The translations under genes and the position numbers were made by a program. The notes under the pieces are model-generated. The model had not been told where the DNA came from. It was given only the letters and a program-made list of their open reading frames with translations, and made no database searches. A DNA stretch of 62,263 nt, filler included, from Candidatus Zapsychrus exili (GTDB lineage: Bacteria > Omnitrophota > Gorgyraeia > Zapsychrales > Zapsychraceae): the NCBI GenBank assembly GCA_030765585.1. It is 4 parts of 4 records of this genome, joined end to end, with 100 filler letters (N's around TTAATTAATTAA, not from the genome) between each part and the next. Parts side by side here need not be neighbours in the genome. Positions count along the whole stretch, not along the records: positions 57,499 to 62,263 come from JAVCCJ010000049.1; 3 more parts are not named here. The stretch is one strand, 5' to 3'. Of the stretch, positions 26,582-62,263 are shown piece by piece. Position 1 is the first letter of the stretch. Every line of letters begins with the position of its first letter.

Positions 26582-26681
26582 NNNNNNNNNNNNNNNNNNN
26601 NNNNNNNNNNNNNNNNNNNNNNNNNTTAATTAATTAANNNNNNNNNNNNNNNNNNNNNNNNNNNNNNNNNNNNNNNNNNNN
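26582..26681. other. Assembly gap with TTAATTAATTAA linker
   Basis: N runs flanking an all-frame stop linker. Confidence 0.99.
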
Positions 26682-41292: not shown

Positions 41293-41392
41293 NNNNNNNN
41301 NNNNNNNNNNNNNNNNNNNNNNNNNNNNNNNNNNNNTTAATTAATTAANNNNNNNNNNNNNNNNNNNNNNNNNNNNNNNNNNNNNNNNNNNN
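41293..41392. other. Assembly gap with linker
   Basis: N runs plus TTAATTAATTAA. Confidence 0.99.
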
Positions 41393-57398: not shown

Positions 57399-57498
57399 NN
57401 NNNNNNNNNNNNNNNNNNNNNNNNNNNNNNNNNNNNNNNNNNTTAATTAATTAANNNNNNNNNNNNNNNNNNNNNNNNNNNNNNNNNNNNNNNNNNNN
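57399..57498. other. Assembly gap with linker
   Basis: N runs plus TTAATTAATTAA. Confidence 0.99.
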
Positions 57499-57538
57499 AT
57501 AAGTAGCTTTAAAAGTATATTTTATACTAAAGGAGTAA

Positions 57539-58087
57539 GTGTTATTAATTTTGTTTATGAGGAATCAAAAGTTAATTCTTGTAGTTTTTCTGCTGGGCTA
57601 TTGCTTGGTTGGCGGAGGGTGCAATTTATTGTTAAGGATTGTAAATAAAGATATGGCTGAAGAAAAAGAAATCTTAGGCGGTAATTACGGCTTCAATCCT
57701 AAGGTTGAAGAGCTTCAGAAGGTACTAAAGAACCTTGGTTATGATGCTGGCTCAATTGATGGAAAGTTAGGTTTTAGGACTCGAAGCGCCGTAAAAGTGT
57801 TTCAGAAAGAGCATGATTTAGAAATGAGCGGTTATTTAAGCAGAAAAACTTGGGAAAAGGTGAAATTATTATATGAAGAGCTATTTTCTTTAAAAAAAGT
57901 TACTGTTTCACAGATACAGAAGGCATTGAATAATGCGGGTTTTAATCCTGGAGTTCTGGATAATAAACTAGGACCAAAGACCAAAAAAGCTATCAGAGAC
58001 TTTCAAAAGTCAGAAGGGTTGCTTGTAGATGGAGAAGTTGGCCTTAAAACCTTGGAGAAGTTGAAAGAATACCTTTCAACGCGATAA
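57539..58087 (+). CDS. Putative lipoprotein with two PG_binding_1 domains
   Basis: GGGC lipobox-like; LQKVLKNLGY...DGKLG..TR.AV..FQ twice. Confidence 0.85.
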   Translation: MLLILFMRNQKLILVVFLLGYCLVGGGCNLLLRIVNKDMAEEKEILGGNYGFNPKVEELQKVLKNLGYDAGSIDGKLGFRTRSAVKVFQKEHDLEMSGYLSRKTWEKVKLLYEELFSLKKVTVSQIQKALNNAGFNPGVLDNKLGPKTKKAIRDFQKSEGLLVDGEVGLKTLEKLKEYLSTR

Positions 58088-58090
58088 TTT

Positions 58091-58270
58091 ATGAGTAATA
58101 AATATTTTTTTAGCAAAGTTTGCCCATATTTTAAAGATAATCAATGCGGCTCTGAATATCTTTCAGAGATAAAGTTGGGAGGCTTAATAGTTCCTCTTTG
58201 TGATACTAATGAGCATGAAAAATGTCCGATTTTTATCGAAAGCAGAAAGCGAGAAAAAGATAAAAAATAA
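58091..58270 (+). CDS. 59-aa four-cysteine protein (below ORF-track cut-off)
   Basis: MSNKYFFSKVCPYFKDNQCGSEYLSEIKLGGLIVPLCDTNEHEKCPIFIESRKREKDKK fills the gap between two + strand genes. Confidence 0.6.
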   Translation: MSNKYFFSKVCPYFKDNQCGSEYLSEIKLGGLIVPLCDTNEHEKCPIFIESRKREKDKK

Positions 58271-58276
58271 ACCGTT

Positions 58277-59092
58277 ATGAAAAAAATAATAAAGGTATTA
58301 GTTGTTTTAGTTTTTCTGCTTTTTGTAACAAATACAGTCTCAATTGCCAGCTATCAAGTTTCGGCTAAAGCAGTTATTTTTTCAAACAGCACAAAAGTTA
58401 AACGATATTATGGAAAAAACGTTCACAAGCGAGTATCTCCCGCTAGTACTGTAAAGGTCATGACAGCTTTACTAGTGATGGAGCATCTTTCATTGAACAA
58501 GACTATAAGGATAAGTAAAAACGCAACTTACCCTGAACCTTCTAAAATTTTTCTTAAAAACGGAGAAAAATTTAAGGTAAAAGATCTTTTATATTCAATT
58601 TTATTAAAATCTGCAAATGATGCAAGTGTTGCTTTGGCTGAAGCAGTATCAGGATCTGAGGCAAAGTTTGTTAAATTAATGAACAAAAGAGCAAAGCAGC
58701 TAGGAGCAAAACATACGCGTTTTAGAAATTCAAATGGTTTGCCTTCAAAAAAAGGGAGTCAATACACAACTCCCTACGATATGTATTTAATTTTTCGGCA
58801 AGCGATGAAATACCCTTTTTTTCGCAAAGCCATAACAATGAAATATAAAACAATTTATTCAAAATCCGGAAGGAAAATTGCATTAAAAAGTCATAATAAA
58901 ATATTGTTCAAAGATTGGAAGAGTAATATTTTCGGTAAAACAGGATGGACTAAAAAAGCACAACAATGTTTTGTCGGATATATACCTAAAGGACGAAGTA
59001 AAGATGTATGCATTATTGCTTTATTTGGAGCAACGAATCGATGGGAAGATATTAAATATATTGTTGAAAAATACGGGAAAATAGATCTATAA
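58277..59092 (+). CDS. D-alanyl-D-alanine carboxypeptidase (peptidase S11)
   Basis: PASTVK (SxxK), SANDA (SxN), GKTG. Confidence 0.93.
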   Translation: MKKIIKVLVVLVFLLFVTNTVSIASYQVSAKAVIFSNSTKVKRYYGKNVHKRVSPASTVKVMTALLVMEHLSLNKTIRISKNATYPEPSKIFLKNGEKFKVKDLLYSILLKSANDASVALAEAVSGSEAKFVKLMNKRAKQLGAKHTRFRNSNGLPSKKGSQYTTPYDMYLIFRQAMKYPFFRKAITMKYKTIYSKSGRKIALKSHNKILFKDWKSNIFGKTGWTKKAQQCFVGYIPKGRSKDVCIIALFGATNRWEDIKYIVEKYGKIDL

Positions 59093-59110
59093 ATAAAATG
59101 AGGATTAACT

Positions 59111-59329
59111 ATGGCAAAAGAAGAGGGAATAGAAGTAATGGGAGTCGTAAAAGAAGCTTTAGCCAATGCGAAATTTCGTGTTGTTCTTGAAAACAATCAT
59201 GAAGTGTTTGCTCACCCTTGTGGAAAAATGCGCAAGTTTTTCATAAGAATTCTACCAGGAGATAAGGTTACATTAGAACTATCTCCCTATGATTTAACCA
59301 AGGAAAGGATTACCTACAGACATAAATAA
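59111..59329 (+). CDS. infA: Translation initiation factor IF-1
   Basis: [46 protein letters not shown]. Confidence 0.96.
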
Positions 59330-59348
59330 TTTTATGTAAAAAACTCTT

Positions 59349-60659
59349 ATGAATTTAAAAACTAAACAAAAAATCATTAAAAATAAAATAACCAAACACG
59401 ACAGTTTTGAAGTTTGGCATGATTGGAAATGGCAATTAAAACATCAAATACGAGATATTCAGGGTGTTGAAGATTTATTGCACATCAAAATTGAAAAGAG
59501 TAAAAGGCAGCAGCTAGAACAAACGATAAAGAAATTTCCTTTATCAGTAACACCTTATTACTTATCGCTGATTGATGAGAATAATTTTGAAACAGACCCA
59601 GTTTTTATGCAATCTGTTCCATCAGTGAAAGAGCTTGATTCATCTAGTTGTGAAATGGCCGATCCTTTGCATGAAGATGGTGATTCGCCTGTCCCGGGAA
59701 TAACTCATCGTTATCCAGATAGAGTTCTTTTTTTAGTAAGCAATATGTGCTCAATGTATTGTCGCCATTGTACAAGAAAAAGAAAAGTAGGGGATCAAGA
59801 TTTTATTCCAAGCAAAAAACAAATAAAAAAAGGATTAACGTATATTAAAAATACGCCTCAGGTGCGGGATGTTTTACTTTCTGGTGGTGATCCTTTGATG
59901 TTGTCAGATGAGCATTTAGAATGGATTTTAAGTGAATTAAGAAAAATACCACATGTTGAAATAATTCGAATAGGTTCAAGAATGCCGGTTGTCTTGCCGT
60001 ATCGAATTACTGATAAACTAGTATCTATATTAAGAAAATATCAGCCGTTATGGATAAACACACATTTTAATCACCCGAGAGAATTAACAAATTCTTCTCA
60101 AACCGCCTTATCTAAACTCGCAGATGCAGGTATCCCACTTGGAAATCAAACAGTATTATTGGCTGGTATTAATGATTGTCCGCGCATCATGAAAGCATTA
60201 GTGCACAGGTTAATGAAAAACAGAGTACGCCCATACTATTTATATCAATGCGATCATTCGGAAGGTCTTATGCCTTTCAGAACTCCTGTTGGTAAAGGCA
60301 TTGAGATTATTGAAAATTTAGTAGGGCATACTTCGGGACTTGGAATCCCAACTTACGTTATTGATGCACCGGGAGGTGGAGGAAAAATACCTGTAATGCC
60401 GAATTATATTATTTCCTGGTCTACCAATAAGGTGATTTTGCGTAATTATGAAGGAACTATTTGTACTTACAAAGAACCAGATTCTTATGTACCTCAATTT
60501 TGTGACCGTGATTGTAAGAAATGTAATTTGCAGTTACAGCTTGATCCTGCGTTAGAAACAAGCCCTACAGGGATTATGAAATTGTTTTCTGATACCGATA
60601 AGACAATTTCTTTAGTTCCTGAAGGCACTGAAAGAGTAAGAAGAAGAAAAAATCACTAA
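59349..60659 (+). CDS. kamA: Lysine 2,3-aminomutase (AblA-type)
   Basis: [38 protein letters not shown]-terminal CDRDCKKC. Confidence 0.95.
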
Positions 60660-60756
60660 ATTATTATTTTATTTAATTGATTGGAATAACATGAAAAAAG
60701 TATTAATTGTTGGAAACTGGGCAATTGGAAAAAGTTAAACAGATTGAGGGGGAAGA

Positions 60757-61701
60757 ATGAAAGTAGTATTTTTAGGTTTTCAGGCATGGGGTTGGGTAGC
60801 ATTAAAAGGATTATTAGAATCAAAGCATCAAGTTGAATTAGTTCTGACTCATTCTCAGGATAGATGTGTTTACAAAGGTTCTTTTCTAGATAGATCAGTG
60901 CATCAATTAGCAGAATCACACAATATTCCTTTTATTGTATGTCAAACGGCAAATAAGGGGGAAATAATTGATAAAATAAAAGAGATTTCCCCTGATGTTA
61001 TTGTTTCCTCTGATTGGGAAACTTGGATTTCACCCGAGGTTGCAGCGTTGGCGAATAAAGCAGCAATAAATATTCATGACGCCTTATTGCCTAAATATGC
61101 TGGTTTTTCTCCTGTGAATTGGGCGATAATCAACGGTGAAAAGAAAACAGGAGTTACGATTCATTATATAGAAGAGGAGTTTGATCAGGGAAAAATTATT
61201 GCTCAAGAAACAGTTTTTATTGAAGATAATGATACAGCAGCGGAAGTATTGAAGAAGATTTTAAATCAAATACCAGAGATTGTTTTAAAATCTTTAGACT
61301 TAATTGAAAGCGAAAAGGTAGAAGCTAAAAAACAAGAAGTTAATGACGCTTCTTTTTACCATAAGATTTCAAAAAAAGACTGTCAAATCAATTGGCATGA
61401 TTCTTGTGATGATGTTTATAGTTTTATTCGTGCGCTATCTGACCCATTTTCTAATGCATATACTTATTTTAAAGGAAAAAAGCTAGAAATAAAGAAAGCT
61501 TCAAAAGCTAATACAGTATACTGTGGTATTCCCGGACGCTTAATCTGCCGACAAGAAGATGGTGTGATTGTATTATGTGGGAGAGTTGGTATTAATAAAC
61601 CTCAAGGCATACTTTTGAAAGAAATTCAGGATCAAGATGGCAGAATCTGGAAAGCAAAAGAATATTTCCCAAAAATGGGTGATTATTTGGGTGATAAGTA
61701 A
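60757..61701 (+). CDS. N10-formyl-THF-dependent formyltransferase (CchA/FxbA-like)
   Basis: INIHDALLPKYAGFSPVNWAIINGE, GVTIH, FDQG; C-terminal EYFPKMGDYL. Confidence 0.88.
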   Translation: MKVVFLGFQAWGWVALKGLLESKHQVELVLTHSQDRCVYKGSFLDRSVHQLAESHNIPFIVCQTANKGEIIDKIKEISPDVIVSSDWETWISPEVAALANKAAINIHDALLPKYAGFSPVNWAIINGEKKTGVTIHYIEEEFDQGKIIAQETVFIEDNDTAAEVLKKILNQIPEIVLKSLDLIESEKVEAKKQEVNDASFYHKISKKDCQINWHDSCDDVYSFIRALSDPFSNAYTYFKGKKLEIKKASKANTVYCGIPGRLICRQEDGVIVLCGRVGINKPQGILLKEIQDQDGRIWKAKEYFPKMGDYLGDK

Positions 61702-61790
61702 ATAAATATAATTAATTATCAGTTTTTAAAGTTTTCAGTGAGGGTTAGCTTGTAACAGCGGTCAACATGGGGCATCCTTCGCCAAATCAG

Positions 61791-61963
61791 TTTCTAAATA
61801 AAGTTTTTGATTCGTTCTTTACTAGAAAATCAGGTGGGACAGGACTTGGATTAGCTGTTTGTAAGCAATTAATTGAACTTCATAGGAGGGGCTTCAAATC
61901 GATAGCCAAGAAGGAAAAGGAGCTACGATAACAGTAAAATTGCCAATTAAGTCTAAAAAGTAA
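61791..61963 (+). pseudogene. Histidine kinase HATPase_c C-terminal remnant with frameshift
   Basis: FLNKVFDSFFTRKSGGTGLGLAVCKQLIELH / LQIDSQEGKGATITVKLP*. Confidence 0.75.
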
Positions 61964-61996
61964 AAATACGTTCATTCATTACATGTACAATATTCT

Positions 61997-62024
61997 AAAA
62001 GGAAGCTAATCGCTTCCTTTTTTT
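61997..62024 (+). terminator. Intrinsic terminator
   Basis: AAAAGGAAGC-loop-GCTTCCTTTTTTT. Confidence 0.75.
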
Positions 62025-62112
62025 ATTTGGTATTAAATCATTTTAATAAAACAAGTGGAATGAAGATGATGTTTTGAGGAGTGCGGCTATTAACTAATTT
62101 CTTAAATGTTCT

Positions 62113-62263
62113 ATAATGTAAACAGGACAGAAGGGGTTCAAAAAGGTTTGAAGGTTGGATTTTATAACTCTAGTTATGATTTTAATGGACTTCAAATTGG
62201 GATTATAAATGAAGCTGATTGGTTAAACGGAGTGCAAATAGGTCTTATTAATGTTCACAAGAA
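62113..62263 (+). pseudogene. LA_2272-type repeat protein fragment running off the window end
   Basis: ...GLKVGFYN..YDFNGLQIGIINEADWLNGVQIGLINVHK; no intact N-terminus visible. Confidence 0.55.

Follow-up and report, generated by a model that had tools for sequence, protein, structure and literature searches.

A lysine 2,3-aminomutase gene paired with an Omnitrophota-specific formyltransferase gene: a plausible but unproven two-gene route to N-formyl-beta-lysine

The enzymes AblA, a lysine 2,3-aminomutase, and AblB, an acetyltransferase of the GNAT family, produce the osmolyte N-epsilon-acetyl-beta-lysine in methanogens and some bacteria. A separate set of described enzymes, comprising CchA, FxbA and Rft, are formyltransferases that make formyl-hydroxyornithine and share an Asn-His-Asp triad and are devoid of the SLLP motif (PMC4786211). 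Elements reminiscent of both systems occur side by side in the DNA described here. The window, i.e., the whole stretch of 62,263 nucleotides (nt) that was analysed, is composed of four contigs (C49, C51, C54 and C58) of a single Omnitrophota metagenome-assembled genome (MAG; G000), joined by N's at positions 26582-26681, 41293-41392 and 57399-57498; genes on opposite sides of a joint are thus adjacent in the window but in no assembly. The MAG comprises 2.04 Mb in 129 contigs, with a completeness of 96.25% and a contamination of 0.68%. The gene block of interest is located on the last contig, C58 (window 57499-62263, 4765 nt), where an ablA gene is followed by a formyltransferase gene, so that "nearby" extends over 1.6 kb on the upstream side of the block and 0.56 kb on its downstream side. 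A two-gene pathway to N-formyl-beta-lysine is plausible but unproven, and is proposed tentatively, at somewhat less than an even likelihood. The features that make up the block are the following.

59111..59329, + strand: infA, a paralogue of the initiation factor IF-1 (72 amino acids; TIGR00008 at 100.1 bits, cut-off 61.15)
59349..60659, + strand: ablA (kamA), AblA-type L-lysine 2,3-aminomutase, a radical S-adenosylmethionine (SAM) enzyme with pyridoxal phosphate (PLP) (436 amino acids; TIGR03820)
60660..60756, + strand: AT-rich spacer of 97 nt, free of terminator-like hairpins; its ribosome-binding site (GAGGGGG) precedes the ATG by 4 nt
60757..61701, + strand: formyltransferase with the domains Formyl_trans_N and Formyl_trans_C (314 amino acids; PF00551 and PF02911)

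The first enzyme of the proposed pathway was originally predicted to be a KamA protein of the AblA type, and its product scores 753.9 bits with the equivalog TIGR03820 (lys_2_3_AblA; cut-off 525.4), covering model positions 4-417 of 417, a match that takes in the C-terminal tail. Moreover, its alignment to 2A5H, a lysine 2,3-aminomutase of solved structure, reaches 515 bits, and the equivalents of C125, C129 and C132 (CxxxCxxC), R134, D293, D330 and K337 are all retained. We take the CxxxCxxC motif to be that of radical-SAM enzymes, K337 to be the PLP-binding Lys, and D293 and D330 to hold the epsilon-ammonium group of lysine. The protein is 71% identical to the AblA of another Omnitrophota genome (G285) in which ablB is the next gene and, in a tree of AblA sequences, it is placed outside the "type-2" clade and next to AblAs linked to ablB. 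Thus, assignment to the AblA type and to the conversion of lysine into beta-lysine is well supported by homology. Omnitrophota carry two types of KamA, a short form and the full-length AblA, both of which are present in the MAG. The short form, covering roughly the first 360 model positions with at most 540 bits, is responsible for almost all matches in the 185 genomes with a hit among 401 sampled from the phylum, where full-length AblA (at least 750 bits) was found in four. The short KamA of the MAG retains the equivalents of D293, D330 and K337 and lies between a Ddl-like ATP-grasp gene and purH (C59:82667-84830; locus L006:411-2574). As a separate observation, the AblA of the window has His303 and Pro309 (window 60256 and 60274), corresponding to L294 and H300 of 2A5H, where a near-identical metagenome contig (L110), one contig of the public run X1 and all other aligned lysine aminomutases have Leu and His; these residues, close to the active-site Asp, may represent a minor allele or a consensus error.

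The second enzyme exhibits the domain order of methionyl-tRNA formyltransferase (Fmt), but it scores under all NCBIfam equivalog cut-offs (169.2 against 201.5 for fmt, 198.9 against 316 for PRK06988 and 192.8 against 777 for ArnA). It contains the motif NIHDALLPKYAGFSPVNW and, as anticipated for a protein predicted to be devoid of the HxSLLPxxRG pattern of Fmt, it shows ALLPKYAG in place of SLLP..RG, while the Asn-His-Asp triad (N105, H107 and D143) is invariant in an alignment of 26 sequences. The true fmt of the MAG is found elsewhere, on contig C25, with 302 bits. The phylogeny was inferred from 58 sequences through an IQ-TREE quick search with SH-aLRT support only and the N-terminal domain of ArnA as outgroup. 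In this tree, 11 Fmt sequences, including those of E. coli and of the MAG itself, form a separate clade with support 99, and one long-branch Fmt-like sequence (P0047) falls outside it. A second Met-tRNA(fMet) formyltransferase, operating with the extra IF-1 in a specialised mode of initiation, would agree with the two Fmt-like domains, the adjoining infA paralogue and the public annotation of members of its clade as "methionyl-tRNA formyltransferase"; nevertheless, the low fmt score, the altered motif, the presence of a true fmt and the separate Fmt clade make this explanation highly improbable.

The AlphaFold2 model of the protein (pLDDT 93.7) predicts an ArnA-N/Fmt fold, with TM scores of 0.88-0.91 at 22-27% identity. 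In the fold search, N-terminal domains of ArnA matched at TM 0.88-0.91 (25-26% identity) and Fmt structures at 0.87-0.91, and there was no solved CchA-type structure among the matches. These results bear on another possibility, namely an ArnA-type N-formyltransferase acting on a sugar nucleotide or a lipid-linked amino sugar. PRK06988 and ArnA are the top NCBIfam matches, ArnA N-terminal domains are the top PDB matches by both sequence and fold, and a peptidoglycan carboxypeptidase is encoded upstream of the block. However, both NCBIfam scores stay far from their cut-offs, Fmt structures fit about equally well, aminotransferase, dehydratase and glycosyltransferase genes are all absent from C58 and identity to the CchA-like clade described below is much higher (38-42% over the full length) than to ArnA. 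Accordingly, this alternative is considered quite unlikely, although the tree does not bear on it, as ArnA serves there as outgroup.

By sequence, the formyltransferase is a member of an Omnitrophota-specific clade that is related to the ornithine-type formyltransferases. Twenty-one other proteins are 61-68% identical to it, and those with source names belong to Candidatus Omnitrophota. The next homologues are five proteins at 47-49% and one at 42%, with the remainder at 37% or less. Among the best 80 loci of a search of genome contigs, two are from Omnitrophota (66-67%), one is from a Thermomicrobia MAG (41%) and 77 are from actinomycetes, the latter being 38-42% identical over the full length. 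In the four complete Streptomyces chromosomes that were checked, a lysine/ornithine N-monooxygenase gene is located 270-300 bp from the relative of the formyltransferase in every case. This is the arrangement of CchA, and the actinomycete sister enzymes are therefore called CchA-like; the likeness to CchA and FxbA proposed in the original prediction is thus borne out. The Omnitrophota clade has support 100 in the tree and is the sister (support 98) of a clade of actinomycete and intermediate sequences instead of being nested inside it, with the enzyme of the MAG nearest to the type found in G464 (P0004). The intermediate relatives (42-47%) come from other phyla (loci L113:7312-16874, L112, L116, L184:8602-14636 and L034) and are found in two types of clusters, one with arginine deiminase, an EF-1A-like GTPase, argH, argG, a CHAT protease and a B3/4-domain protein, and the other with an ornithine/diaminopimelate (Orn/DAP) decarboxylase, argG and a LodA-like lysine oxidase. 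Considering the N-monooxygenase in Streptomyces together with the argG, argH, arginine deiminase and Orn/DAP decarboxylase neighbours, the wider family is tied to ornithine-type free amino acids.

The search of the MAG for N-hydroxylases returned only a partial PF13434 match of 22.5 bits and no credible ornithine N-monooxygenase, and neither N-monooxygenase nor siderophore transport genes occur on C58, the contig to which the search for nonribosomal peptide synthetase (NRPS) domains, also negative, was confined. No EpmA was found in the MAG; the best genX match, in a frame of 490 amino acids, reaches 239.7 bits with a cut-off of 286.9 and is probably a lysyl-tRNA synthetase, and the route through elongation factor P (EF-P) was therefore discarded. 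Lacking an N-hydroxylase and EpmA, the hydroxyornithine and EF-P routes have no partners in the MAG. In addition, AblB (the GNAT family TIGR03827), whose presence elsewhere in the genome the original prediction had counted against itself, has no match in the MAG and none on the contig. The absence from the surroundings of GNAT, NRPS, efp/epmA and lysine-fermentation genes, also noted originally, extends to the 4765 nt of C58. The MAG is likewise devoid of an orthologue of the small GNAT and of the PurD-like partner that accompany AblA in other Omnitrophota (see below), its sole PurD match being 30% identical.

From the identities and order of these genes, their catalytic residues, phylogenetic positions and distribution, together with the negative AblB search, we infer the following pathway. 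The infA paralogue, ablA and the formyltransferase gene, which were found to be exactly the three co-oriented open reading frames (ORFs) originally described, with gaps of 19 and 97 nt, are probably transcribed together, there being no terminator-like site between the last two genes and a strong ribosome-binding site in front of the formyltransferase. AblA would convert L-lysine into (3S)-beta-lysine, and the formyltransferase, occupying the place that AblB has in canonical ablA-ablB operons, would use 10-formyl-tetrahydrofolate (10-formyl-THF) to formylate one of the amines of beta-lysine, the terminal N6 being the most likely one. As the beta-homologue of ornithine, beta-lysine (3,6-diaminohexanoate) has the H2N-(CH2)3-CH(NH2)- part in common with it. 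N6 is favoured firstly on account of this shared part, since in derivatives of ornithine related enzymes place the formyl group on the side-chain nitrogen, and secondly because a neutralised N6 would give a zwitterion, as in acetyl-beta-lysine. In saline surroundings, N6-formyl-beta-lysine may thus act as a compatible solute in the manner of N6-acetyl-beta-lysine. Since the AblA is nearest to AblAs linked to ablB while the formyltransferase is nearest to the G464 type, the sequences suggest that the two genes were brought together secondarily, with the formyltransferase taking the place of ablB.

A saline habitat is indicated by the public sequencing runs that contain the stretch, which are labelled salt lake metagenome. 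Run X1 is the best holder and may be the source sample, whereas run X2, from another study with the same label, contains pieces of kamA and the formyltransferase, of which 7 of 11 match at 99% or more. Two further runs (X3 and X4) hold only small and partly unlike pieces and were not used for the habitat. The Logan contigs of these four runs do not span the gap between kamA and the formyltransferase (those of X1 reach 60045-60745 and those of X2 reach 60720-61051), and the continuity of the two genes is taken from the MAG contig and from L110, which both show it. Among the public runs listed, no RNA run holds the stretch.

Several observations weigh against the proposed pathway, beginning with the neighbourhood of the formyltransferase in other genomes. 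Within the sample of 401 Omnitrophota genomes, the MAG alone carries a member of the clade; 23 genomes matched at E <= 1e-40, the others at 39% identity or less. At least six other genomes among the matches listed are carriers (G406, G407, G464, G466, G467 and G468; 63-67% identity), and ablA does not adjoin the formyltransferase in any of these six. Instead, the order thyX-DUF748-formyltransferase is found in G406, G407 and G467, with G466 showing DUF748 at the start of its contig; the copy of G464 is located in a cluster of the lipid type, beside a PlsC-type acyltransferase and a giant B12-radical-SAM/ketosynthase protein, and that of G468 beside enolase and DivIC. The junction of kamA with the formyltransferase occurs otherwise only in L110, which is 99.2% identical to C58, so that the adjacency is not conserved. 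In a tblastn search with KamA over 189 loci, genes of the KamA family turned up solely in loci of the MAG itself, in L110 and in L031, the latter two being the only ones with such a gene among the 160 more distant loci. Furthermore, G466 and G467 carry the formyltransferase and no AblA or lysine-type KamA was found in them, the completeness of these two genomes being not known.

Two groups of KamA-family proteins were discarded as lysine aminomutases on account of the changes D293->R and D330->S. The first is encoded 2-4 genes downstream of the formyltransferase in G407 and G466. The second is that of L031:7293-10357 and L239:4184-7617, where it is part of a conserved block that also encodes an EncB-like ferritin cargo protein and a fusion of an amino-acid permease with a PTS EIIA domain; this enzyme probably acts on an acidic substrate.

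Full-length AblA is present in four of the six other carriers (G406, G407, G464 and G468). Of the 85 genomes in the order of G407, 6 carry the formyltransferase clade, 10 carry AblA and 3 carry AblB; the formyltransferase occurs in 4 of the 10 genomes with AblA and in 2 of the 75 without it (Fisher p = 0.0014, related genomes not being independent). However, the four genomes of this order with both genes belong to one AblA clade and, therefore, the co-occurrence amounts to approximately two independent events. The 13 distinct Omnitrophota genomes with full-length AblA (G351 and G431 being the same genome) are distributed as follows.

Formyltransferase clade member: 5 of 13 (G000, G406, G407, G464, G468)
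AblB: 4 of 13 (G285, G351 and G430, adjoining ablA; G478, on another contig)
Both formyltransferase and AblB: 0 of 13 (none)
Neither: 4 of 13 (G385, G416, G479, G482)

The variable neighbourhood of the formyltransferase also agrees with the two genes of the MAG being chance neighbours. The formyltransferase would then act on some other ornithine- or lysine-like amine, e.g., free ornithine or lysine, the head group of an aminolipid or a component of the envelope, and the beta-lysine made by AblA would either accumulate unmodified or be put to some other use. The arrangement with thyX and DUF748, counted in 4 of the 7 carriers listed, the lack of an adjoining ablA in 6 of these 7, the PlsC-type acyltransferase and ketosynthase giant beside the G464 copy, the two carriers in which no AblA was found and the mosaic nature of C58 all favour this explanation. 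On the other hand, the gene lies exactly in the position of ablB, preceded by no terminator and provided with a strong ribosome-binding site, the search of the MAG found no other partner that would modify beta-lysine, and AblA is enriched among the carriers. To our knowledge, free beta-lysine, which is a cation, is not an end-product osmolyte. On balance, chance neighbours are a substantial but unlikely explanation.

The other partners of beta-lysine also count against a simple exchange of AblB for the formyltransferase. A third type of AblA operon exists in Omnitrophota, composed of ablA, a PurD-like ATP-grasp gene and a GNAT of 160 amino acids (G464, G468 and G479); in G385 ablA is followed by the PurD-like gene, and G406 and G407 have at least ablA and the PurD-like gene. 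Two carriers of the formyltransferase, G464 and G468, thus have the whole operon and two others, G406 and G407, at least its first two genes, so that beta-lysine probably has other partners in these organisms; moreover, since a small GNAT follows ablA in carriers, the lack of AblB is not equivalent to the lack of an acyltransferase. Loci with this operon type are L265:2358-5492, L267:3352-6422 and L268:431-3673, the PurD-like protein being about 30% identical to housekeeping PurD, and four genomes with the whole or part of it also carry the formyltransferase clade elsewhere. The operon suggests a beta-lysine-derived product that has not been described. By analogy with the succession of PurD and PurN in purine synthesis, the formyltransferase could act on a conjugate of beta-lysine, such as the beta-lysyl amide that an ATP-grasp ligase would produce, or on an envelope or peptide product containing beta-lysine. 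Its co-occurrence with ablA-PurD-like(-GNAT) operons in G406, G407, G464 and G468 speaks for such a role, as do the pair of Ddl-like ATP-grasp and short KamA genes on C59 of the MAG and the occurrence of the short KamA in most of the 185 matching genomes of the 401 sampled. Nonetheless, the MAG is devoid of a PurD-like paralogue, the PurD-like operons of G385 and G479 come without a formyltransferase and the C59 pair is unlinked to it, so that a conjugate as substrate is regarded as improbable, though less so than the sugar-modifying alternative above.

The status of the contig is a further point against the proposal. The remaining features of C58, all on the + strand, are given below; the complete order is a peptidoglycan (PG)-binding protein, an ORF of 59 amino acids, the D-Ala-D-Ala carboxypeptidase, infA, kamA, the formyltransferase and the histidine-kinase remnant.

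58277..59092, + strand: dacA, D-Ala-D-Ala carboxypeptidase (Peptidase_S11; PF00768 at 159.4 bits), ending 18 nt before infA
61767..61931, + strand: remnant of a histidine-kinase ATPase, 54 amino acids (PF02518 at 30.6 bits, profile positions 50-88 of 111)
61997..62021, + strand: terminator-like hairpin with a T tail (10 pairs, 4 of them G-C; then TTTATTTGGT)

Second copies of genes present elsewhere in the MAG are found on C58, namely dacA (66% to the copy on C59), infA (71% to the copy on C92) and the PG-binding gene. The dacA of C59 is the copy syntenic with relatives of the same family, its flanking genes being common to 13-14 of 15 relatives' loci, and infA, kamA and the formyltransferase are all absent from the dacA loci of these relatives, four of which (G492, G337, G371 and G496) are without a member of the formyltransferase clade. 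Similarly, the infA of C92 sits in the array secY-adk-map-infA-rpmJ-rpsM-rpsK-rpsD and is the canonical copy, the one on C58 being an additional IF-1 paralogue that does not belong to the ribosomal-protein cluster. Because of these second copies and the lack of synteny with family relatives, C58 is taken to be an island of accessory genes or else a piece that was mis-binned. In addition, L110 is 99.2% identical to C58 from 58352, inside dacA, rightwards to its own end, but it is unrelated to the left of this position, where it carries a radical-SAM gene instead, and leftwards of the same point there are contigs in runs X1 and X2 that likewise diverge completely from C58. Either the block dacA-infA-ablA-formyltransferase occurs in two genomic contexts, as this suggests, or the assembly is chimeric. 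The shortness of C58, its duplicate genes, its lack of synteny and the alternative left junction (L110, X1 and X2) thus all weaken the proposal and, if C58 is mis-binned, the lack of AblB in "the genome" carries less weight.

As regards the other elements of the contig, the hairpin at 61997-62021 is the first terminator-like site downstream of the formyltransferase. The histidine-kinase piece is probably a gene fragment outside the pathway and may be a decayed or mis-assembled gene; small insertions and deletions (61886 and 61891) are seen in this fragment in one contig of run X1. The Rfam scan of C58 gave no match at E <= 1, and promoter-like sites were not used, as they are not enriched (17 observed and 18.8 in shuffles). 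Genes of translation initiation are found next to abl genes in three distinct layouts, namely infA-ablA in the MAG (window 59111-59329), ablA-ablB-SUI1/YciH in G351 (L194:20-415) and ablA-membrane protein-infA-thyX in G482 (L266:3546-3764), which could reflect either chance or a shared stress regulon.

Taken together, the original interpretation is upheld in part. The AblA type of the aminomutase, the separation from Fmt, the likeness to CchA and FxbA and the failure to find ablB all stand, whereas the adjacency is not conserved, two carriers are without a detected AblA, PurD-like and GNAT partners exist in others and N-formyl-beta-lysine as the product is a deduction. The "CchA-like" label of the sister clade rests on gene context, the tree containing neither characterised CchA, Rft nor FxbA and ArnA as the sole sugar N-formyltransferase, and the pathway as a whole is proposed from sequence and gene context. 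A broader version would hold that some salt-lake Omnitrophota have exchanged the acetyltransferase for a recruit from the lineage of hydroxyornithine formyltransferases and accumulate N6-formyl-beta-lysine, the clade acting as a beta-lysine or beta-lysyl N-formyltransferase wherever it occurs with AblA; this is possible but less likely than not, and is advanced with more reserve than the two-gene pathway of the MAG itself. In the literature searched, there was no mention of N-formyl-beta-lysine, nor was the pair of aminomutase and formyltransferase found in the titles and abstract openings of those works listed that combine these with beta-lysine or acetyl-beta-lysine.

If the proposal is true, it would add a new small-molecule osmolyte and a form of osmoprotection drawing on the one-carbon pool of folate instead of acetyl-CoA, and beta-amino acids would become a new class of substrates for the Fmt/CchA family of formyltransferases. 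It would further imply that unrelated acyl-transfer chemistries can replace one another at the second step of the beta-lysine osmolyte pathway, and the public label "methionyl-tRNA formyltransferase" on members of the clade would be corrected. If it is false, the clade nevertheless represents an Omnitrophota-specific branch, so far uncharacterised, among the relatives of the ornithine-type formyltransferases.

Compared with known systems, the proposed pathway would, if real, be a variant of the AblA/AblB pathway and not a new kind of system. Both have the same first enzyme, 71% identical to that of the ablA-ablB operons of Omnitrophota, a layout of two genes with the modifying transferase directly downstream and a saline habitat label. 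They differ in the second gene, which encodes here a folate-dependent formyltransferase in place of the GNAT AblB, not found in the MAG; the product would consequently bear a formyl instead of an acetyl group, with 10-formyl-THF as donor in place of acetyl-CoA. With CchA, Rft and FxbA, the enzyme shares the two-domain Fmt-like architecture, the Asn-His-Asp triad and the lack of SLLP..RG (PMC4786211 for the last two); it is, moreover, the sister of actinomycete genes located beside ornithine N-monooxygenases, and its substrate would belong to the same class, free basic amino acids modified at their side-chain amine. Unlike these enzymes, it belongs to a separate Omnitrophota clade (support 100) at 38-42% identity to the CchA-like sequences, lies on a contig free of genes for N-monooxygenases, NRPSs and siderophore transport, is partnered by a radical-SAM aminomutase and would formylate a primary amine, not a hydroxylamine. 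Fmt has the fold and domain order in common with it, but the enzyme fails the fmt cut-off, differs in the motif, is a second gene beside the true fmt and is placed in a separate clade. Finally, the N-terminal domain of ArnA provides the best match among solved structures, yet at 25-26% identity, and here there is neither a dehydrogenase domain nor any arn gene nearby.

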